DNA of 64,000 nucleotides from Betaproteobacteria bacterium. GTDB lineage: Bacteria; Pseudomonadota; Gammaproteobacteria; Burkholderiales; SG8-39. The notes under the pieces were generated by a model, which worked only from the letters and a program-made list of their open reading frames with translations, did no database searches and was not told the origin of the DNA. Positions 37,482 to 61,113 of this stretch are shown piece by piece (positions within the stretch are counted from its first letter, which is position 1; every line of letters starts with the position of its first letter). The stretch covers positions 2,660-66,659 of the forward strand of contig JBQTJX010000003.1 of NCBI GenBank assembly GCA_052386675.1. The letters run 5' to 3'. The translations under genes were made by a program, and so were the position numbers.

Positions 37482-38666
37482 ATGGACATCGATCTTGCGC
37501 AGGCCCTCCGTCCCGGCGACGGCATCATGGTCGGGCAAGCCACGGCCGAGCCCCAGGCGCTCACCGAAGCACTGGTCGCGCAGCGCGCGAAGTTCTCTGG
37601 CGCCAGGCTGTTCCTCGGCGTCAACTATGCCGGCATCGTGAAACCCGCGCATGCCGACCACCTCCGCCTGACCGCCTACTGCGGCGCCGGCGCTAACCGG
37701 GCGCTGGCGGATGCCGGCGTGCTGGACATCCAGCCCCATCCCTATTCCCGCTTCGCCGCCCTGATCCGCGACAGGAGGCTGGCGAGCGACGTGGTCTTCG
37801 TGCAGCTCAGCCCGCCGAACGACCAGGGCGTGTTCAGCATGGGCCTCGCGGCCGAGTACCTGGTTCCCGCGCTCGCCGGTTGCCGCGCCATCGTCGCCGA
37901 GGTCAACGACCAGGTGCCCTGGACGCACAGCGAGCGGCTGCTGCGGCGCGAGGACCTCGCGCTCGCGGTTCTGTCCTCGCGCACGCCGGCACAGGTAGCG
38001 GCCAAGCCTCCATCCGATGCGGAGAAGGCCATCGCACGCCACGCCGCGGCCTTCGTACCCGACGGCGCGACGCTGGAATTCGGCCTTGGCACCCTGCCTG
38101 ACGCCGTCTGCGCTGCGCTGGGTGGCCGCAAGGACCTGAAAGTGCACAGCGGCGCATTGGGTGACGGCGTCGTCGGCCTGATGCAGGCGGGCGTGGTGAA
38201 GGAAGCGGACTGCGGCGTGCTGATGGGCAGCCGCAAGCTGTTTGCGTTCGCGCACCGCAATCCGGCCGTCAGGCTGCGCTCCACGGAGTACACCCACGAC
38301 CCGCGCACCCTGCTAGGCATCGAGCGCTTCATCGCCATCAATTCGGCGGTGGAAGTGGACCTGACCGGGCAGGTGAACGCCGAGGTCGCGGCCGGCAGCT
38401 ACCTCGGCGCGGTCGGCGGCGCGCTCGATTTCGTTCGCGCCGCGAACCAATCTTCCGGCGGGGTCTCGCTGCTGCTCGTGCGCGCCTCGCGCATCGTGGC
38501 GCAGCTGCAGGGCCCGGTGGCGACCCCGCGCAGCGAGGCGGGCGTGATCGTCACCGAATGCGGCGCCGCCGACCTGCGCGGCCTGGGCCTCGCTGAGCGC
38601 CGCCGGCGCATGATCGCCATCGCCGCCCCCGAGAATCGCGCCGCCCTGGAGGCAGCCGAAGGATAG
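37482..38666 (+). CDS. Acetyl-CoA hydrolase/CoA-transferase family protein
   Basis: [61 protein letters not shown]. Confidence 0.9.
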
Positions 38667-38670
38667 GCGA

Positions 38671-38727
38671 AAAACAGGGACAGACCACGTTTTCCCTGGC
38701 TGGAAAACGTGGTCTGTCCCTGATTTC
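38671..38727. repeat. 57-bp REP-like palindromic element, copy 1 (intergenic)
   Basis: Perfect 21-bp arms CAGGGACAGACCACGTTTTCC(38675-38695)/GGAAAACGTGGTCTGTCCCTG(38702-38722) with a 6-nt loop; 50/57 identical to the reverse complement of 50311-50367. Confidence 0.92.
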
Positions 38728-38743
38728 CTGATTTGGCGCGGAT

Positions 38744-47664: not shown

Positions 47665-50600
47665 TTAGTGAAAGTCCCTTGAGCGCAGGGCGAGGCTGCC
47701 GAACAGCGGCTCGAGCATCCGGCCATGGTCCCGCAGCCGCCGGGCCACCAGGTGAACCACGTCGCCTTCACGTTCGACCACGCCCTCCACCCCGAGCAGG
47801 CGAGCCCCCAGCAGTTCCCGGCGCTGGCGCTCTGCGAGATCGCGCCAGACGATGACGTTGACGCAGCCGGTCTCGTCCTCCAGTGTCACGAAGGTGACCC
47901 CGCTCGCGGTGTCCGGACGCTGCCGGCAGGTGACCAGCCCGGCGGCGAGCGCGCGGCGGCCGTGTGCGACCGCGCGCAGTGCCTCGGCGCTCGCCAGCCC
48001 CGCCGCCTCCAGTTGCGGCCGCAACAAGGCCAGGGGGTGGCGGCCCAGAGTGAGGCCGAGGCTATCGTAGTCGGCGGCGATCGCCTCGGCCTCGCCGGAG
48101 GGCGCGAGCGGCACAGCGGCGTCCTCGCGCGGCGCGGCCATCGCCGGCCGACCCTCGCTTCCAGAGGCGAGCCAGTGCGCGTTGCGGCGGTGCCCCGCCA
48201 GCGGGTGCAGCGCATCGGCCGCTGCCAGGCAAGCCAGGTCCCTGCGGTCCAGGCCTGCGCGCCGCGCCAGTTCGTCCACGGTGGAAAACGGACGCGCCGA
48301 AACGACGCGGCGGCCGGCAACCTCGGCCAACCCGCCGACCATGCGCAATCCGAGACGGACGGCAGGCGCCGCGGGCACTGCGCCCTGCTCCAGCGTGCAG
48401 TCCCAGTCGCTCAGGCAGGCGTCCACCCCGCGTACCTCGACGCCGTGGCGGCGCGCGTCCTGCACCAGCTGCGAAGGCGAGTAAAAGCCCATCGGCTGGC
48501 TGTTGAGGAGCGCGGCGAGGAAAGCCGCCGGGTGGTGGCGCTTCAGCCACGCCGAGACGTAGACCAGCAGCGCGAAGCTCGCCGAATGCGATTCCGGGAA
48601 ACCGTAGTCGCCGAAGCCGAGGATCTGGCGGTAGATCGCGTCGGCGAAGGCCGGCGCATAGCCATTCTGCGCCATGCCCTGCTTCAATCGGGCCTCGAAT
48701 GGCTCCAGGCCGCCCTTCTTCTTCCACGCCGCCATGGAGCGGCGCAGCGCATCGGCCTCGCCGGGGGAGAATCCGGCCGCGACCATCGCCAGCTGCATCA
48801 CCTGCTCCTGGAAGATGGGCACGCCCAGCGTCCTCGACAGCACCGCCTCGACCGCCTTGCTCGGATAGATCACCGGTTCCAGCTTCTGCCGGCGGCGCAG
48901 GTAGGGATGCACCATGCCGCCCTGGATCGGGCCCGGGCGCACGATCGCCACCTCGATCACCAGGTCGTAGAAATTCTCCGGTCGCAGGCGCGGCAACATG
49001 CTCATCTGCGCGCGCGACTCGATCTGGAACACGCCCACGGTATCGGCCTCGCGGATCATGGCGTAGGTGTCCGGGTCCTCCGCGGGCACGCGGCGCATGT
49101 CCTCCAGGCCGATGAAATGCAGCGCCTTGCGGATCGCGGTCAGCATGCCCAGGGCCAGCACGTCCACCTTCAGCAGGCCGAGCGACTCCAGGTCGTCCTT
49201 GTCCCACTGGATCACCGTGCGATCGGCCATGACCGCGTTCTCCACCGGCACCAGCTCCGCCAGCGGTCCGCGCGAAATGACGAAGCCGCCGACGTGCTGC
49301 GACAGGTGGCGCGGGAAGCCGACCAGGTCCCCGGCGAGCGCGAGCAGGCGCTGCACCGCGGTGTCCTCCGGGTCGAGGCCCGCCTCGGCCAGGCGCGCGG
49401 GCAGAACCGCGCGCCCGTCCCACCACGACAGCGTCTTCGCCACGCGCTCCAGCTGCGCGGGCTCGAAGCCGAGCGCCCGGCCCATGTCGCGCAAGGCGCT
49501 CCTGGGCCGGTAGCAGATCACCGTGGCCGCAAGTGCCGCGCGTTCGCGGCCGTATTTCCCGTACACGTACTGGATCACCTCCTCGCGCCGCTCGTGCTCG
49601 AAATCGACGTCAATGTCCGGCGGCTCGTTTCTTTCCTTTGACACGAAGCGCTCGAACAGCATGCTCATGCGCGCCGGATCCACCTCGGTGATGCCCAGGC
49701 AATAGCAGACCGCGGAATTCGCCGCCGAGCCGCGGCCCTGGCACAGGATGCCGAGCGAACGCGCATGACGTACCACGTCGTGCACAGTGAGGAAGAAGGG
49801 CTCGTAGCCAAGCTCCGCGATGAGCGCCAGCTCGTGCCCGACGAGGTCCCGCACCGGTGCCGGCGCGCCGCCGGGGAAACGCCAGGCGAGACCTTCCTGC
49901 GCCAGCTTGCCCAGCCAGCTCGCGGGCGTCTCGCCCGCGGGCACCAGTTCTTCGGGGTACTCGTAGCGCAGCGCATCGAGCGAGAAGGCGCAGCGCGCCG
50001 CGACCGCCAGCGTTTCCGCAAGCAGTTCCGCCGGGTAGATCTGCGCCAGCCGGGCGCGCAGCCGCAGGTGCCGCTCGCCATTCGGGAACAGCGCGTGGCC
50101 GCAGTCCTGCACCGGCTTGCCCACGCGCACCGCGGTGAGCGCGTCCTGCAGCCGGCGGCGCGAACGTGCATGCATGTGCACGTCGCCCGCGGCCACGAGC
50201 GGCAGCCCGCTCGCGCGCGACAACTCCCGCAACCGCGCCAGCTCCACGCGGTCATCCGACCCCGCATGCAGTTCCGCCGCAATCCACGCCCGCCCCCGGA
50301 AATCATTGATGAAATCAGGGACAGACCACGTTTTTCCGTCGGAGAAATCGTGGTCTGTCCCTGTTTCTTTCCCTGCTTCCGGGAGCCAGAGGGCGAGCAG
50401 GCCGCTCCAGGCGACGCGCGCCACGTCTTCCCGCGCAAGCGCGTAGGCGCCCTTCTTCGCGCGCCGGCGGCCGGTGGTGATGAGACCGCAAAGCGCGCCG
50501 TAGGCTCGGCGATCGGGCGCGAGCAGCACCAGCCTGTCGCCCTCCTGCAGCCGGAACTCCGCGCCGATGAGCAGCTTCAGGCCGTGCTGCTTCGCCGCGA

Positions 50601-50766
50601 CGTGCGCGCGCACGATGCCGGCGAGGGAACACTCGTCGGTGAGCGCCAGCGCTGCATAGCCCAGCGCGGCGGCGCGCGCCGCCAGTTCCTCCGGCTGCGA
50701 CGCCCCGCGCAGGAACGAGAAGTTCGACAGGCAGTGCAGCTCGGCATAGTCAGGCAAAGATGCCAT
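47665..50766 (-). CDS. dnaE2: Error-prone DNA polymerase DnaE2 (ImuC)
   Basis: [56 protein letters not shown]-terminal SRDFH. Confidence 0.97.
50311..50367. repeat. 57-bp REP-like palindromic element, copy 2, in frame within dnaE2
   Basis: Arms CAGGGACAGACCACG/CGTGGTCTGTCCCTG (50316-50363); encodes [19 protein letters not shown] (DnaE2 residues 134-152). Confidence 0.9.
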
Positions 50767-51979
50767 GCACCCGCCAGCCTTCCGCGTCCCGGTACACCCA
50801 GACGAGGGAACCCCGTGCCCGCGCGACGAAGTAATCGCGGCGCACCTCTCTCCCGTCCCACCATCCTGACTCGATCCGCTCAGGCCCGGCGAGCAACTCG
50901 AGGCCGCCTTCCTCGACCCCTTTCAGCGCGCGCGGCGGCTCGACCAGCCACAGCGGGCGCGCGCCGGGTCCCGGCGCCTCCCTTACCCCGCGCGTTCCGG
51001 CCTCGACCGGCTTCCAGGCGAACTCCGGGCGGTGCTCGGCGTGCAGTCCCAGGCCATGGACCGCACCACGGCCAAAGCGGGCCTGCAGGCGCTCGACCAG
51101 GCGCAGCCAGTCTTCTCCGCCGCCCTCCTCCCCGAACAAGCCACGGCTGTGCCCGTCGAGCGGCACAATGTCCGCCGCCGACAGCCGCACCGCCTCGGCC
51201 AACGCCACGAGTGGCCGGCGCTCCAGCCGCTCGCGCAGCAGGTGCGCGAAATGCCCCGCATCCCGCGCCGGCGCGGCCAGGCCGACCTCGACCGTGGTGG
51301 CCGATGCCTTCGCATGGAACAGCTCCAGGGTGAAGCGGCGCACGCCGCTGTGGCGCGCCGCGAGGAAACCCTCCAGCCCGGTGAGCAGGCGCCGGGCCGC
51401 AAACAGCACGGCGGCCGCCTCGAACACCGGCACCGGCAGTTCCAGCCGCGCCTCGAAACGCGCCGGCGGAACGTAGAGCCGCCGCGGTTCCGGGATGCGT
51501 CCCAGCGCTTGGTCGAGTTCGTCCACCAGCGCCTGGCCGAAGCGCCGCGCCACGCCCTCACGCGGCAGCGCTAGCAGTCCGCCCAGGTCCCGGATGCCCA
51601 GCCCCTGCAGCAGCTTCAGCCGGTCTGCCGGAAGGCCGAGTACCGCGACCGGCAACTGTTCAAGAGGTAATCCGCCGCCCGCCGCCCGCCAGAGCGCCGC
51701 GCGCGCGGTGTGTGCGAAGGCGAGCACGCCTTCGAAGCCCAGCTGAGCGAGGCCGGTGCGGATCCCGCGCGCGAGTTTCCCCGCGCCGCCGTACAGGCGC
51801 AGGCTGCCCGCGACCTCGGCTGTCAGGCCCCCGGGCGGCTCAAGCGACACCTTGGGGGTGTAGCGCCCCATCCAGGCCGCGATCGCTTCGAGCGCCTCGC
51901 GCCCGGCTTCAGGCGGCGCATGCCCGCGTGCGAGCGCCTGCGACTCGATCCCAGGCAGGTGCAGGGCTACCCACAGCAT
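50750..51979 (-). CDS. imuB: ImuB (Y-family polymerase-like accessory protein)
   Basis: [28 protein letters not shown]-terminal [13 protein letters not shown]...RDYF; sits between imuA and dnaE2. Confidence 0.92.
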
Positions 51980-52607
51980 GGATCGGCCTTCCGATGTGGA
52001 AATGCAGCGGTGCGCGCGCAGGCGCGCCACGGCGCTTGAGGACATGGACGAGGACCTGCCCCCCGGCTGGTTCCAGGGCGAGGCGCAGGCGCGCCGGCGA
52101 GGCTTCCTCCGCCGCGGCCAGCGGACGAAACAGCACGACGAACGCCGGCCCGCCCTCGGCGGCCACCGCCAGCCGGCGCAGTTCCGGATAGCCCGGGCGC
52201 TGCGGCCAGGCCAGCAGAGCGTGGAAGGCGCGCGAGCGCAACGCCTGCTCGGCGGCCCACAGCGCATCGCGCCGCCCCGGCGCGCGCACCACGGTGAGGT
52301 ACTCCAGCGCCACGCCCGCCGCAGCGAGCGCCGGGGCGTAAGGCAGATGCGGCGGCGCCAGCCAGGCCACACGCTGACCAGCGGCGGTCAGCCGGGCGAG
52401 CGCTGGCAGCACCAGCTGCAGCTCACCGATGCCCTCGGTTCCGGATAGAACCTCGCTCAGCGCCCCGGTGGGCCAGCCGCCGCCGGGCAACTCGCAATCG
52501 AGAGACGGGAGACCGGTGGCGATGGCAGGCGCGCCCGCGGTCGGTGCGGCGCCACGCCAGAGGTCCTGTCGCCGGAGAAGGGGTACGAGGGAATCGAGGG
52601 GCATCAT
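51909..52607 (-). CDS. imuA: ImuA (RecA/SulA-like translesion accessory protein)
   Basis: DLWRG, TGLPSLDCELPGGGWPTGALSE, GIGELQL, EQALRS, ASPARLRL; ATG 52607 or 52604. Confidence 0.92.
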   Translation of the reverse strand: MMPLDSLVPLLRRQDLWRGAAPTAGAPAIATGLPSLDCELPGGGWPTGALSEVLSGTEGIGELQLVLPALARLTAAGQRVAWLAPPHLPYAPALAAAGVALEYLTVVRAPGRRDALWAAEQALRSRAFHALLAWPQRPGYPELRRLAVAAEGGPAFVVLFRPLAAAEEASPARLRLALEPAGGQVLVHVLKRRGAPARAPLHFHIGRPIHAVGSPAPAWDRVAGARTRACAA

Positions 52608-52612
52608 GGATA

Positions 52613-52628
52613 CTGTATATAAACACAG
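52613..52628 (-). promoter_or_regulatory. Canonical LexA box of imuA-imuB-dnaE2
   Basis: CTGTATATAAACACAG matches CTGT-N8-ACAG, 5 bp upstream of the imuA ATG. Confidence 0.93.
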
Positions 52629-52663
52629 TCTCCGGGCCCGGGCAAGCCCCGCCCTCGCTTTTG

Positions 52664-54163
52664 CTACTTCTTCTTCAGCTGCTTGACCTGCGCCATGTAG
52701 GCGGAGAGGAAATCTCGCCCGAACACCTTGTTGAAGTCGTCGTTCGCGTCGCGCGCCAGCTTCTGCTGGTAGGTGGCGAACAGCCCCCACAGCTTGGCCT
52801 TGCGGTTCAGGCCCAGGCCGCCGGAGGACTTCTCCAGGTCCTCTTCCAGCTTCTTCGGATCGAAGCGCGCCACCGCTCCCAGGATCGCGGCGCGCATCCC
52901 GGCGATCAGGGCGGCTTCATGCGCGCGCATGTCGTCGAAGGCGTCGCTCACCGCCTGCACCGGGGTGAGGAAGCCGCCGGAGCGCTCCTTCGGATCGAAC
53001 AGGAAATCGATCGCCTCCTGCGGGTCGGCCATCAGCTTGAGCGGGTTGTTGTCGCGCGAGGCGACCATGGTGCGGTCCTCGGCGCGGAATTCCTTCTTCG
53101 CCTCGGCGCGCGCCACCAGCAGCGCCATGACGCCGTCGATGGCGGCGCGCGTGATGGCGCCGCACTGGCGCAGATACTGCTCCGCCTCGGCGTCGCTGGC
53201 GAAACTGCGCGGCGGCAGCCCGGCGCCCTCGAGGAAGACCCGCAACGCCTCCTGCGCACCCGGCCCGGCTGCCCCGCCCTCGGGCTGCGGAAAGGTCGTC
53301 TCCGCAGGTCGAGTGCGCAGCAGCGTCTGCTCCAGGAACACGCTGCGGTCCTCGTACGGCACTTCCGGTTCCGCGGGCGAAGGCTTCGGCAAGTCGTCGC
53401 CTTTGGCTGGTTCGTCAAAAAAGCCGTCTTCCGGCGGCGGCAGGTTGCGCAGCAGCGTCACTTCCTTGAACACGCTGTCCTCGACGGATTCCTCCGCGGG
53501 CCCGGATCCCTCTTTCCGTCCGTCCATGGACTTGCCCATGTAGGTCGGCTCTTCGAACATGTCCGCCGGCGGCGGCGCACCGGTATAGGTCGCCTCGGCA
53601 AACACGCTGTCGTCCGTCGCTGGCGCCTTGGGTGCCTGCTCGGGCATCGGTTGCGTCACGGCCGCCGGCTGCGATTCCGGCTCCGGCGCCGGTTCGGGAT
53701 CAAGCAGTATGTCGGGCACCTCCGGCACCGGCTGGCCGATGAAGGTCGGCTCCGCGATCGGTGACCGGGTGATGAACGTCGGTTCCTCAAGCGGGGACCG
53801 GGTAATGAAGGTCGGCTCGGATGCGTCGGCGAGCGGCGGCGGCGGCGCTGGCGGCACCAGCTCGATTTCGTATTCGCCGATCTCGACCCGATCGCCGCCG
53901 CGCAACTGCACCCGGCTGCCCGGATCGTGCCGCTGTCCCGCGACGAACACCGGGTTGACCTTGGACACCACGTTCAGCCAGTACTCTCCGTCCTCGACGT
54001 TCAGCTCCGCGTGCACCCGCGATACCCACTTCTTGGGATCCTCGAGGTGCAGCAGGCACTCCGTGCCGCGGCCAATGGTGATGCGCGCATTGTCGAACGC
54101 GCGTTCGCGCAGCAGCGTCGGGCTGGCGCTGCCCTTCTGGTACAGCTTCAGCGCGAGAGTCAT
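52664..54163 (-). CDS. T6SS-associated FHA domain protein (TagH/Fha-like)
   Basis: FHA TIGRG...VSRVHA; Pro/Glu-rich linker; TagH C-terminal NNPLKL...DMRAHEAALIAGMRAA...FGRDFLSAY. Confidence 0.9.
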   Translation of the reverse strand: MTLALKLYQKGSASPTLLRERAFDNARITIGRGTECLLHLEDPKKWVSRVHAELNVEDGEYWLNVVSKVNPVFVAGQRHDPGSRVQLRGGDRVEIGEYEIELVPPAPPPPLADASEPTFITRSPLEEPTFITRSPIAEPTFIGQPVPEVPDILLDPEPAPEPESQPAAVTQPMPEQAPKAPATDDSVFAEATYTGAPPPADMFEEPTYMGKSMDGRKEGSGPAEESVEDSVFKEVTLLRNLPPPEDGFFDEPAKGDDLPKPSPAEPEVPYEDRSVFLEQTLLRTRPAETTFPQPEGGAAGPGAQEALRVFLEGAGLPPRSFASDAEAEQYLRQCGAITRAAIDGVMALLVARAEAKKEFRAEDRTMVASRDNNPLKLMADPQEAIDFLFDPKERSGGFLTPVQAVSDAFDDMRAHEAALIAGMRAAILGAVARFDPKKLEEDLEKSSGGLGLNRKAKLWGLFATYQQKLARDANDDFNKVFGRDFLSAYMAQVKQLKKK

Positions 54164-58386: not shown

Positions 58387-61113
58387 TCAGCGCCGCGCCG
58401 CGGTCGGAACGGATTCGCCGGCCAGGCGAGCCGCCTCGTACCATTGCAGCGACTCTGCCAGATCACGTCCGACGCCCGGTACACCCTTGTCGTATATCTC
58501 CCCCAGCCGCTTCGCAGCCGGGCCACTGCCCTTGCGTGCGGCGAGTCGATAGACGCGCACCGCGTCGCGGAATTTGCCTTCCTCTTCCAGCGTGCGGCCC
58601 TGAACCATCGGATCTAGGGCGGCGACCTGCGTCTTGCCTGAGGCCTGCGCCTTGGCCGCGAGCTCGGCCTGACGCTGCGCCTCCTGTTCGAGCTCCTCGC
58701 GTTCGCGGCGCGAAATCTGCGGCACGGTATCGGACTTGGGCTCGGCGATGGGAATCGCTGGCGCCGAGGGTGCCGGCGTGCCGGGAGCCAGCGAAGCCGT
58801 CTTCGTTGGCGCCTTGGCGGGTGCGGCGGACTTGGTCGCTGGAGCTTTGCCCGGGGATACCGCGGCCACCGTCTCCTGCTTGGTCGGCTCCGGCTTGGCG
58901 GGTTCGGCGACCGGCGCGGGCGCCACCGTCGGAGCCACCGCCACCGCGGGCTCCGGGGCCTTCACCGGGGCCTTGCTCTGCTTGTCGGCGGTGGCCTTGG
59001 CCTTGCTCGCGGCTTCAGCCGCGGCTGCCGCCGCCGCCTGACGCTGCTTCACCAGCTCCGCCTGCTTGTTCATCTCCGCCTCGGCGCGCTTGGCGGCATC
59101 CTGCGCCTCCTTCAGCTTGGCGGTATCGCCCGCCTTGCGCGCGGCCTCCTCTGCTGCCCGCGCCTGCTCGAACGCCTTCAGGGACTCCAACTGCTTCGCC
59201 TGCGCCTGCTTCAATTCCTCGGTCGCCTTGGTCGCGTCCTCGAAAGCCTTCACAACCTGGGCCTGACGCTCGCGTGCCTCCTTGCCCAGGTAGTACCAGG
59301 CGCCTCCGCCCAAACCAACCAGCAGGACGAATCCCGCGACAATCGGGATTACCGGAATCTTGCCCTTTGGCGCGTCGGCCAGTTCCTTCTTCAGTTGCGC
59401 TTCGCGCTTGGCGTGCTCGGCTTCGCGCCGAGTGCGCTCTTCGGCTTCCTTCTTTGCACGTTCCTCGGCGTCCGCTTTCGCCTTGGCCAGTTCCTCAGTC
59501 TGCTTCTTCGCACGCGCTTCCGCTTCGGCCCGCGCCTTGGCGGCCGCGACTTCGGCTTCCTTGCGTGCCTTCTCCTCGGTCTCGCGTCGCGCCTTGGCTT
59601 CCGCCTCGGCCTTGGCGCGCGCAGCAGCGGCCTCAACGTCGCGCCGGGCCATCTCGGCCTCGTACCTCGCCTTCGCCTCCGCCTCGCGCTTTGCGAGCAG
59701 GCTCTCGGCATCTTTCCTGGCCTTCTCGATCTCCAGCGCCCGCGCCTTGGCGTCGGCTTCGGCCTTTGCCTTCATTTCGGCTTCGCGCTTGGCGTCCTGC
59801 TCCGCGCGCGCTTTCTCCGCGGCGATGCGACGGGCCTCCGCCTCGGCCTCGCGTTTCTTGAACTCCGCCTCGCGCTCGGCCAGTTGCTGCTCAAGCTTGG
59901 CCTTCTCGTCCGCGAGCTTCGTGCGCGCTTCCTCTTCCTTGCGCGCGGCCTCCTCCAGCTCTTTCTTCTCCTGCTCCCTCGCCTTGGCGCCAGTCTCCTC
60001 CGGCGCCACGCCGCGCAGCTTCGCGATCTTGCGCTTGGCGAGCGCGGCATAGATCCCCGCCGGAAACTGCTGCACGTAGAGCTCGAAGTCGTCCGGGTCG
60101 TTGCCGTCCTTGATCGAGCGCCAGAACTCCAGCTCGACTTCCTGAGTGCCCGAGGCAGTGGCGTTGGTCCTCGCCGAGGCGTCGGCCTTGGCCGCGGCCA
60201 TTTGCGGCACCGGCATCATCCCGGTGGCAGACATCGATCCGACCACGGTCTTGTCGTCGTCCTCCTCGCCATGACCTTCCAGCGCACGCTTGAGCGCGAG
60301 GCCGAGGTCGCGGGCGGTCTGGTAGCGCGCCTCGACGCTCTTGGCGAGTGCCTTGTTGACCACCGCGTCAAACAGCGCCGAGACGCCCTTGTTGATCGAC
60401 GACGGGACCGGCGGATTGTCCTGGATGATCTTCTTGGCGATGGTCCAGGCGCCCGAGCCGGTGAACGGCTTCTCGCCGGTCAGGAACTGGTACAGGATGA
60501 TGCCGGCAGAGAAGATGTCGCTGCGCCGATCAACGCTGCCACCCGTGATCTGCTCCGGCGACATGTAGGCAGGCGTGCCAACCATGGTCCCTGCCTGGGT
60601 CTTCTCGGTTGAGGAACTGTCGGTGATGCGCGCGACGCCGAAATCGGCCAGCTTCACCTTGCCAGTGGTGTCGATCATCACGTTGGCCGGCTTGATGTCG
60701 CGATGCACGATGCCCGCCTCGTGGGCAAAGTGCAGCGCGTCGCACAATTCCGCCATGATGCGAACGGCTTCCTTGATGTCGAAGCGCTCACTGGCGTCGA
60801 AGAAGTTCTTGAGCTCCTTGCCCTTGATGAACTCCATCACGATGTATGCGATGTCACCTTCCTCGCCGAAGTCGTACACCTGCACGATATTGGCGTGGTT
60901 CAGGCGTGCGACCGCCTGGGCCTCGCGCACGAACCGCATCGAGTATTCCTTGGCGGTGTCGGCGTCAAGCGCGCTCTTCAGGATTGTCTTGATCGCAACC
61001 GTGCGATGCAGGCGAGGGTCGATGCCGGCGTACACCATGCCCATCGCGCCTTTGCCGAGGACACGGTCTATGTCGTAGCGGCCGAGCCGCTTGATGTCAG
61101 GCGCGGCGGACAC
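58387..61113 (-). CDS. Membrane Ser/Thr kinase with long coiled coil, TM and C-terminal Sel1-like repeat
   Basis: GKGAMGMV, VAIK, HRDIKPAN, DFGVAR, GTPAYMSPE; EAKARA-rich helix; TM IVAGFVLLVGLGGGAWYY; LGEIYDKG..RDLAESLQWY; start GTG 61113 (after GAGGG) or TTG 61149. Confidence 0.9.
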   Translation of the reverse strand: MSAAPDIKRLGRYDIDRVLGKGAMGMVYAGIDPRLHRTVAIKTILKSALDADTAKEYSMRFVREAQAVARLNHANIVQVYDFGEEGDIAYIVMEFIKGKELKNFFDASERFDIKEAVRIMAELCDALHFAHEAGIVHRDIKPANVMIDTTGKVKLADFGVARITDSSSTEKTQAGTMVGTPAYMSPEQITGGSVDRRSDIFSAGIILYQFLTGEKPFTGSGAWTIAKKIIQDNPPVPSSINKGVSALFDAVVNKALAKSVEARYQTARDLGLALKRALEGHGEEDDDKTVVGSMSATGMMPVPQMAAAKADASARTNATASGTQEVELEFWRSIKDGNDPDDFELYVQQFPAGIYAALAKRKIAKLRGVAPEETGAKAREQEKKELEEAARKEEEARTKLADEKAKLEQQLAEREAEFKKREAEAEARRIAAEKARAEQDAKREAEMKAKAEADAKARALEIEKARKDAESLLAKREAEAKARYEAEMARRDVEAAAARAKAEAEAKARRETEEKARKEAEVAAAKARAEAEARAKKQTEELAKAKADAEERAKKEAEERTRREAEHAKREAQLKKELADAPKGKIPVIPIVAGFVLLVGLGGGAWYYLGKEARERQAQVVKAFEDATKATEELKQAQAKQLESLKAFEQARAAEEAARKAGDTAKLKEAQDAAKRAEAEMNKQAELVKQRQAAAAAAAEAASKAKATADKQSKAPVKAPEPAVAVAPTVAPAPVAEPAKPEPTKQETVAAVSPGKAPATKSAAPAKAPTKTASLAPGTPAPSAPAIPIAEPKSDTVPQISRREREELEQEAQRQAELAAKAQASGKTQVAALDPMVQGRTLEEEGKFRDAVRVYRLAARKGSGPAAKRLGEIYDKGVPGVGRDLAESLQWYEAARLAGESVPTAARR

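Follow-up and report, generated by a model that had tools for sequence, protein, structure and literature searches.

The window, a 64,000-nt stretch of DNA that corresponds to C3:2660-66659 of genome G000 (metagenome-assembled, 74 contigs, here designated C, 3.70 Mb, 67.8% GC, 93% complete), carries an intact gene for the error-prone DNA polymerase DnaE2, and within its coding sequence lies the 57-nt palindromic element GAAATCAGGGACAGACCACGTTTTTCCGTCGGAGAAATCGTGGTCTGTCCCTGTTTC. With good confidence, we regard this element as a REPIN, i.e. an inverted doublet of repetitive extragenic palindrome (REP) units, from a family associated with a REP-associated tyrosine transposase (RAYT), which is carried as a tolerated passenger within a PHP-domain loop of DnaE2 that is predicted to be disordered. 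The element is a near-perfect palindrome of two 15-nt arms separated by 18 nt (Table 1). A second copy is situated in the 77-nt spacer between two convergent open reading frames (ORFs), which end at 38666 (plus strand) and 38744 (minus strand). The reverse complement of the dnaE2 copy is identical to it at 50 of 57 bases, and of the seven mismatches five fall into the central loop, while a W (A/T) position adjacent to the stem and the 5' end account for one each. A preliminary description of this DNA had reported the inverted recurrence of the convergent-gene spacer copy within dnaE2, the span of exactly 19 codons of the PHP region without a break of the frame and the clustering of the differences in the loop; all these statements were confirmed, with the codons falling on residues 134-152 of an intact 1033-aa ORF.

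Folding of the dnaE2 57-mer gave -35.4 kcal/mol (z = -8.1), and folding of a 101-nt mRNA stretch around it gave -60.6 kcal/mol (z = -8.45). A search of Rfam with the whole window, both REPIN copies included, returned no family match. The palindrome in dnaE2 extends imperfectly over 88 nt and then takes in GAAxCAGG-like flank units as well as the codons CCGGAA/TTCCGG; these outer codons were rejected as part of the element, as they resemble ancestral codons (PGE...FPG). REPIN flanks often bear tandem 8-nt units such as CCTGATTTCCTGATTT. Such units (CCTGATTT / GAAAWCAG), in up to four copies, adjoin REPIN ends at 38721-38737 of the window and in many flanks genome-wide (e.g. C20:19080-19105, C30:72390-72420 and C43:80667-80695), and they possibly trace back to repeated insertion or to slippage.

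The assumption of a multi-copy REP-like family, already made in the preliminary description, is supported by the genome-wide counts. The degenerate arm pattern AGGGAC-R-G-[ACT]-CCACG, searched with at most one mismatch, was found 152 times in G000 and 11 times in the reversed genome, which served as control. The 152 arms resolve into 101 elements, namely 68 hairpins and 33 single arms, and a curated set of 93 elements was used for location statistics; the family therefore has about 95 copies and is not limited to the two in the window. Its consensus reads GAAAWCAGGGAC-R-G-W-CCACGWTTTCC, followed by a loop and then the complement. Each arm forms a small hairpin by itself (GGAAATC-N13-GATTTCC), hence the larger hairpins of the family are REP doublets, i.e. 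REPINs, and their folding z-scores range from -7.6 to -11. Three arm subtypes coexist in G000: ACGGAC (55 arms), ACAGAC (26 arms) and ACAGTC (20 arms). Both arms belong to the same subtype in 44 of 53 clean hairpins, and approximately 15% of the REPINs have mixed arms.

According to counts made on ORFs and not on curated gene calls, 65 of the 93 curated elements have, at a distance of at most 40 nt, a stop codon that ends a long ORF rich in GC at third positions, and 17 of these 65 sit between convergent gene ends. In many cases the element runs over the stop codon (TAAATCAGGG or TGAAAACAGGG). Fifteen of the 93 were flagged as inside ORFs, but only about seven are taken as intragenic. We found a short palindromic unit in many dispersed copies (152 arms, approximately 93-101 elements), which is arranged mostly in close inverted doublets that fold into one hairpin and is located mainly outside of genes near their 3' ends, as is characteristic of REPs and REPINs. 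No invariant GTAG tag was found on the REP unit; GTGG occurs inside the core (CGTGGTC), and CGTC is present in the ACGGAC subtype only. Several REP arms in G000 are adjoined by GATC-centred palindromes of the type ATGTAACCGATCGGTTACAT (Table 1).

G000 has a single full copy of a RAYT-type gene, and the search for a transposase gene bordered by these repeats was successful, since inverted REP arms flank it at C48:27817 and C48:28615. The encoded Y1 (HUH) protein shows NHVHLL as its HUH motif and YIELNPVRAG as its tyrosine motif. Orthologues with 53-86% identity exist in seven other species (eight gene copies). Inverted arms of the same or a sister family flank them in G002, G022, G043, G007, G011 and G045 and flank a gene fragment in G003, and the arm subtype beside these genes varies from gene to gene. 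Outside the genus, homologues with 47-60% identity were found in other Beta- and Gammaproteobacteria, in a collection without the genus of the window. The exact arm pattern has 130 hits in G000, 110 in G043 and 46 in G022, and ten further species of the genus have 1-17 hits each; the pattern is absent from 15 of 16 other families of the order, with one match in the sixteenth. A sister family, AGGGTC-W-GACCCCG, which shares the GAAAWC and GWTTTC flanks, is present in G001, G007 and G008. As judged from these matches, the REPIN family belongs mainly to this genus. It is putatively mobilised by the RAYT, for which the evidence is indirect: copy numbers differ greatly among the species, and three loci that hold a REPIN in G043 lack one in G000 (Table 1). 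No clear target-site duplication was seen in these three comparisons of filled and empty sites. At one of them, L229, the REPIN lies immediately ahead of the former stop codon and brings along a TGA that replaces it.

Table 1. Features of the dnaE2 region and related elements elsewhere. Positions without prefix refer to the window, those with prefix C to contigs of G000.
Feature	Position	Strand	Remark
REPIN (inverted REP doublet) in frame in dnaE2	50311-50367	minus	19 codons, DnaE2 residues 134-152
First REP core arm, CAGGGACAGACCACG	50316-50330	plus	subtype ACAGAC
Second REP core arm, CGTGGTCTGTCCCTG	50349-50363	plus	complements the first arm perfectly
Longer imperfect palindrome enclosing the dnaE2 REPIN	50296-50383		39-nt arms, 74% complementary
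Intergenic REPIN of the same family	38671-38727		subtype ACAGAC, between convergent genes
dnaE2, error-prone DNA polymerase	47665-50766	minus	1033 aa, intact, NCBIfam NF004225
ORF between imuA and dnaE2 (imuB position)	50750-52372	minus	assigned by position only
imuA, translesion-synthesis-associated protein	51909-52790	minus	NF033429, 210 bits (cut-off 150)
Y1_Tnp gene (RAYT-type, HUH), single full copy	C48:27882-28598		Pfam PF01797, 43 bits (cut-off 23)
UvrA-UvrA fusion ORF, 1945 aa, REPINs in both signature-to-Walker-B linkers	C37:8181-8244, C37:10872-10937		outside the window
REP-like stretches in the Lon gene (C-terminal tail and internal)	C7:15752-15765, C7:16512-16525
FAD-oxidoreductase-like ORF, 586 codons	C29:44662-44675		perfect REP arm with flanks, encodes KSGTDHDF
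Single REP arm joining a flavodoxin ORF to a benzoate-CoA-ligase-like ORF	C19:102717-102730		no stop, fused frame of 669 codons
REPINs present in G043 and absent from G000 (L222, L224, L229)	C68:64038, C40:15017, C47:40158		empty sites in G000
GATC-centred palindromes beside REP arms	C43:84350-84380, C48:12700-12740, C48:19140-19170, C25:39880-39900, C63:4490-4500

To trace the origin of the dnaE2 copy, approximately 29 DnaE2 orthologues were compared over the linker, i.e. the stretch from the GLLAL strand to the WIAAELH strand. The linker comprises 46 aa and contains the REPIN in G000 and its two closest relatives, G022 and G043. In about 20 other species of the genus it comprises 32-35 aa with the consensus GLLALWVPGEKPSLEDALWIRERFPG..W, and in other families of the order it is variable and free of REPINs. 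Altogether, approximately 25 orthologues are without the insert, so the segment is not an ancestral peptide, while the three copies lie at the same site in genomes that were assembled independently. In a UvrA tree, G000, G043, G002 and G022 form one clade with G001 and G041 as the sister clade (support 100/100); no dnaE2 was found in G002. Together with the distribution of the insert, the tree therefore dates the REPIN to the ancestor of the clade of G000, G022 and G043.

These comparisons effectively refute the view that the resemblance between the two copies in the window reflects chance, an ancestral peptide or an assembly artefact, a view to which we attach next to no probability. Some exact core matches are indeed chance, for example an MnmG/GidA motif at C14:37889 that lacks REP flanks, and a REP-like stretch inside Lon is length-neutral and lies on a conserved motif. 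However, the identity of 50 of 57 bases includes the flanks of the element, the arms outnumber the control 152 to 11, and the presence at one site in three independent assemblies, with approximately 25 orthologues lacking the segment, is not explained in this way.

The dnaE2 copy is not the only one in a coding sequence. The screen for coding copies required an open frame flanked on either side by a third-position GC of 0.8 or more. In the UvrA-UvrA fusion ORF, the linker at site 1 comprises 57 aa in G000 compared with 33 aa in the ancestral state, and G043 and G002 have a 3-codon scar there (AAAACAGGGAC|TGTCCCTGA). The linker at site 2 comprises 52 aa in G000 and G022 versus 30-32 aa; this site is occupied by a REPIN of the genome's own family in G001, by a scar in G041 and G019, and by other palindromes in G043 and G002. 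The C-terminal tail of Lon is lengthened by about 10 aa in G000 and G022 through a single REP arm (KSGTDHDF; RKSGTDHDFREGG). Hence, the earlier claim that the family creates new peptide segments also applies to UvrA, twice, and to the tail of Lon. The internal Lon sequence KQGQTTIS matches a REP arm at approximately 24 of 26 bases, but it overlies a conserved Lon motif with unchanged length and is therefore not explained by simple insertion. Further candidates are given in Table 1. Besides C14:37889 (motif FLSGTVHVG), the core matches at C15:16789 and C17:19737 were rejected as chance matches without REP flanks. C21:106997 was rejected as a coding copy since it is probably a 5' stop-to-stop extension, and the elements at C2:27832, C54:19310 and C66:19957, flagged as inside ORFs, are likely 5' extensions as judged by position only.

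The preliminary description had gone further and regarded the palindrome as domesticated within DnaE2. Under such a model, the PHP domain would gain a novel interaction or activity from the 19-residue peptide. It could be argued that the peptide was kept in frame in three species and that the motif TGTDHDF recurs in DnaE2, in UvrA (twice), in the Lon tail and in the oxidoreductase. However, the core reading frames of the family are nearly all stop-free (91-103 of 106 readings), hence survival in frame is easy and the recurrence of TGTDHDF merely reflects one stop-free frame of the arm. The structural prediction points in the same direction. An AlphaFold2 model of the N-terminal 300 residues of DnaE2, built with 26 aligned orthologues, reached a mean predicted local distance difference test score (pLDDT) of 84.6 and a predicted template modelling score of 0.81. 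The placement of the peptide, which had been proposed as a check, put it in a low-confidence loop of the PHP domain: the insert was modelled as coil between strand 124-128 and helix 149-155, and pLDDT was below 50 over residues 134-145. The peptide is thus predicted to be disordered, and in the model the loop is probably surface-exposed and permissive. In a PDB sequence search, DnaE1 of Mycobacterium tuberculosis aligned only outside residues 80-177, so that the loop was not mapped onto a solved structure. Furthermore, the peptide is only 63-68% identical among G000, G022 and G043, compared with 92-95% for DnaE2 outside the element (DNA 89-93%, third codon positions 78-86%). Hence, the claim of domestication was not upheld, as the peptide is predicted to be disordered and diverges faster than the rest of the protein, whereas the pairing of the stem is conserved, in the same manner as in intergenic copies. 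We consider a domesticated peptide very improbable.

The pairing of the stem is fully conserved. The three dnaE2 copies have the same length of 57 nt and the same flanks, and their loops diverge freely, but their 15-bp stems differ at two positions only, both of which are compensated (four core differences forming two pairs). The left and right arms read ACAGAC and GTCTGT in G000, ACGGAC and GTCCGT in G022, and ACAGTC and GACTGT in G043. The changes in the stem of G043 replace residues, D by V and S by T (D138V, S148T), and all three copies fold into hairpins of -35 to -42 kcal/mol. The fast change of the peptide combined with compensated stems therefore places the constraint on the structure of the DNA or RNA rather than on the peptide.

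Such a constraint could be taken as evidence for a selected cis-regulatory hairpin that tunes the level of the mutagenic polymerase, either as RNA that slows ribosomes or recruits a nuclease, or as DNA that pauses replication or transcription. A stable mRNA or DNA hairpin may possibly affect dnaE2 expression, judging from the predicted folds. The high stability of the hairpins in all three species and the compensation of every stem change, even at the cost of replacing D by V and S by T, are in line with this idea. Moreover, REPs recur in dnaE2 and uvrA across phyla, which according to Di Nocera et al. (PMC3733652) is hardly fortuitous. However, the copy at 38671-38727 has orthologues in G022, G043 and G002, and its subtypes are the same as in dnaE2, namely ACAGAC in G000, ACGGAC in G022 and ACAGTC in G043. 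Since intergenic orthologues share the compensated, genome-specific pattern, it is a property of the family and not specific for dnaE2. In addition, most species of the genus do not have the element in dnaE2, and the UvrA REPINs were lost or collapsed to scars in close relatives. A cis-regulatory role therefore appears unlikely to us, albeit less so than domestication.

The genome-specific subtypes raise the question of how arms change at fixed loci. The dominant subtype is ACAGTC in G043 (approximately 75%) and ACGGAC in G022 (approximately 80%). The dnaE2 copy carries the dominant subtype in these two genomes and the minority subtype ACAGAC in G000. We placed 36 REPIN loci of G022 and G043 on G000 by their flanks, which show 80-96% identity, share a contig and keep a consistent order. 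In the comparison of G043 with G000, a REPIN is present in both genomes at 22 loci; the subtypes agree at only two of them and differ at 20. At 11 of the 22 loci both arms are ACAGTC in G043 and ACGGAC in G000. The longer loops at loci with switched subtype are nearly identical (22 of 23, 20 of 21 and 21 of 27 bases). Between G022 and G000, subtypes agree at five of six loci. At C47:6360-6455 of G000, a collapsed ACAGTC scar adjoins a full ACGGAC REPIN, whereas G043 has a single ACAGTC REPIN there. Independent point mutation was ruled out as an explanation, because it cannot yield dozens of parallel compensated changes at approximately 10% divergence. Such parallel changes hence require a templated process or family-wide selection.

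As a tentative interpretation, which we regard as possible but rather doubtful, REPIN arms may evolve in concert at fixed loci and be rewritten to the prevailing subtype of the genome, so that codons of DnaE2 would be overwritten as well. The rewriting of resident copies would proceed arm by arm and leave the loops orthologous, and the approximately 15% of copies with mixed arms look like intermediates of this process. Candidate mechanisms are short-patch gene conversion between copies, arm-to-arm correction of quasi-palindromes and templated repair initiated by nicks of the RAYT. Re-insertion beside old copies is a further candidate, with which the scar and the fresh REPIN at C47:6360-6455 would fit. 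A locus-preserving, concerted switch of arm subtypes that reaches coding sequence is not described in PMC3733652, PMC3686654 or bioRxiv 2021.07.10.451892.

Taken together, the comparisons show the following course of events. One REPIN entered dnaE2 in the common ancestor of G000, G022 and G043, landing in the length-variable loop of the PHP domain that connects the beta-strand 124-128 with the subsequent helix. It was retained because its length is a multiple of three, it contains no stop codon, and the disordered loop is permissive. The DNA would still behave as any REPIN of the family, with paired stems and variable positions matched per genome. The likeliest cause of the matched stems would be templated correction, from arm to arm or from copy to copy, or selection for the hairpin in all copies. 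From the observed sequences and their comparative pattern we thus infer that the dnaE2 copy is a passenger and not a domesticated peptide.

Nevertheless, several observations weigh against this interpretation. First, the insertion was not clean: compared with G041 and G019, approximately 6-7 ancestral codons (HWAAWL, including the conserved Trp) were replaced, and the net gain of DnaE2 is 11-12 residues, hence a clean insertion of 19 codons had to be rejected. The orthologue alignment proposed in the preliminary description accordingly gave a mixed result: residues 134-152 are lineage-specific, as they occur in three species and are missing from approximately 25 orthologues, but they do not represent a simple insertion of 19 codons. 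The REPIN itself provides a Trp four residues upstream. Second, the same loop in dnaE2 of G001 (L003) has a single unit of the sister family, AAAACAGGGTCTGACCCCGATTTG, which encodes KTGSDPDL (sister repeat unit AGGGTCWGACCCCG), without any gain in length; simple transposition therefore does not explain the loop of G001. A small perfect palindrome, GAAAAGGGGTCAGACCCCTTTTTC, is found in this loop in G007 (L005), and the repeats of G001 and G007 suggest either recurrent targeting or patch-like overwriting of the loop. Third, the perfect conservation of the stem, including non-synonymous compensated changes, could mean that the hairpin itself is selected in dnaE2. Fourth, the RAYT protein scores 65.6 bits against NCBIfam REP_Tyr_transpos, which is under the cut-off of 80, its flanking arms in G000 are of the ACGGAC subtype and the dnaE2 copy is ACAGAC, and no RAYT with flanking ACAGAC arms was found in the 93%-complete assembly of G000. 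Finally, all compared genomes are metagenome-assembled, and an assembler bias toward dominant repeat variants is possible, which also bears on the proposed rewriting of arms.

The assignment of the host gene itself is firm. DnaE2 matches NCBIfam NF004225 with 1453 bits (cut-off 939) over residues 4-1033, and the ORF contains PHP, polymerase, finger, HhH and OB domains. It is a DnaE2 (ImuC) protein according to the full-length match to the subfamily and the presence of imuA upstream. The ORF in the imuB position had no match in NCBIfam or Pfam, and the true start of imuA is probably downstream of the ORF start. The imuA-imuB-dnaE2 cassette is adjoined by an ORF at 52664-54163 (minus strand) with a match to TagH, an FHA-domain protein of type VI secretion (TIGR03354, 240 bits). 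Elsewhere in the window, at 59439-59823, imperfect direct repeats in a 49-nt register (seven copies, 61-71% identity) resemble a repetitive coding stretch.

Systems of REPs or REPINs with RAYTs were reportedly described by Nunvar in 2010 and by Bertels and Rainey in 2011. The family found here resembles them in its short palindromic unit with about 100 copies, mostly inverted doublets, in its location mainly at 3' ends of genes, where it often gives the stop codon, and in the single Y1/HUH RAYT-type gene flanked by inverted units. It is different in that its sequence occurs mainly in one uncultured Burkholderiales genus, that a conserved 5' tag of the GTAG or CGTC type is not clearly recognisable, that each arm is a small hairpin itself, and that orthologous copies with genome-specific compensated subtypes exist in three species. 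Di Nocera, De Gregorio & Rocco (2013; PMC3733652) reported REPs within genes, notably those for replication and repair. Excinuclease ABC subunits were hit, each uvrA of Opitutus terrae and Thioalkalivibrio having two inserts, and REPs were found in dnaE2 of O. terrae (residues 934-971) and in that of Sphingomonas wittichii (Swit_1119), where the REP cluster at residues 166-246 is N-terminal as in the present DnaE2. Most of these intragenic inserts are dimers encoding 20-30 residues, to which the in-frame copies in dnaE2 and at two uvrA sites correspond, and REP ends often supply stop codons. Bertels and Rainey stated that REPINs are nearly all extragenic and left open how the REPIN sequence shifts upon a change of the RAYT, while Nunvar et al. 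(2013) found orthologous RAYTs flanked by different REP classes.

The Rickettsia palindromic elements (RPEs; Ogata et al., 2000, according to PMC10969869 and PMC3733652) likewise are in-frame palindromes in housekeeping genes that add surface peptides and leave the protein intact. However, RPEs are approximately 100-150 bp long and occur in Rickettsia, whereas the present element is 57 nt long, unrelated in sequence, RAYT-associated and found in a Burkholderiales genome at 68% GC. RPE-4 and RPE-6 belong to the REP class tagged with CGTC, which is not known to have a transposase of its own, and a large share of RPE copies is intragenic, compared with about seven of 93 here. Hence, the element is an analogue of RPEs only. 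Bacterial MITEs (transposable elements of the miniature inverted-repeat type) in genes, such as ERIC and Correia (Delihas, 2007, as cited in PMC10969869), also are small non-autonomous repeats that can lead to in-frame peptide insertions. In contrast to the present family, MITEs derive from DDE insertion sequences and have terminal inverted repeats and target-site duplications; here, the three comparisons gave no clear duplication and the linked enzyme is a Y1 HUH protein, so that the element does not belong to the MITEs.

In-frame REPs in dnaE2 and uvrA are already known (PMC3733652), and the apparent concerted rewriting of arms at fixed loci is the new lead. The dnaE2 copy represents a datable REPIN in a polymerase of the DNA damage response, with three orthologous copies and approximately 25 orthologues without insert for comparison. 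It shows which loops in DnaE2 and UvrA can accommodate 10-25 additional residues, and it lends independent support to the observation of 2013 that REPs recur in replication and repair genes. The system is well suited to ask whether such hairpins are neutral passengers or regulators. If arms are indeed rewritten, REPIN populations would not be simple sets of independently decaying copies, and the dynamics of the repeat family would directly drive amino acid changes in host proteins.

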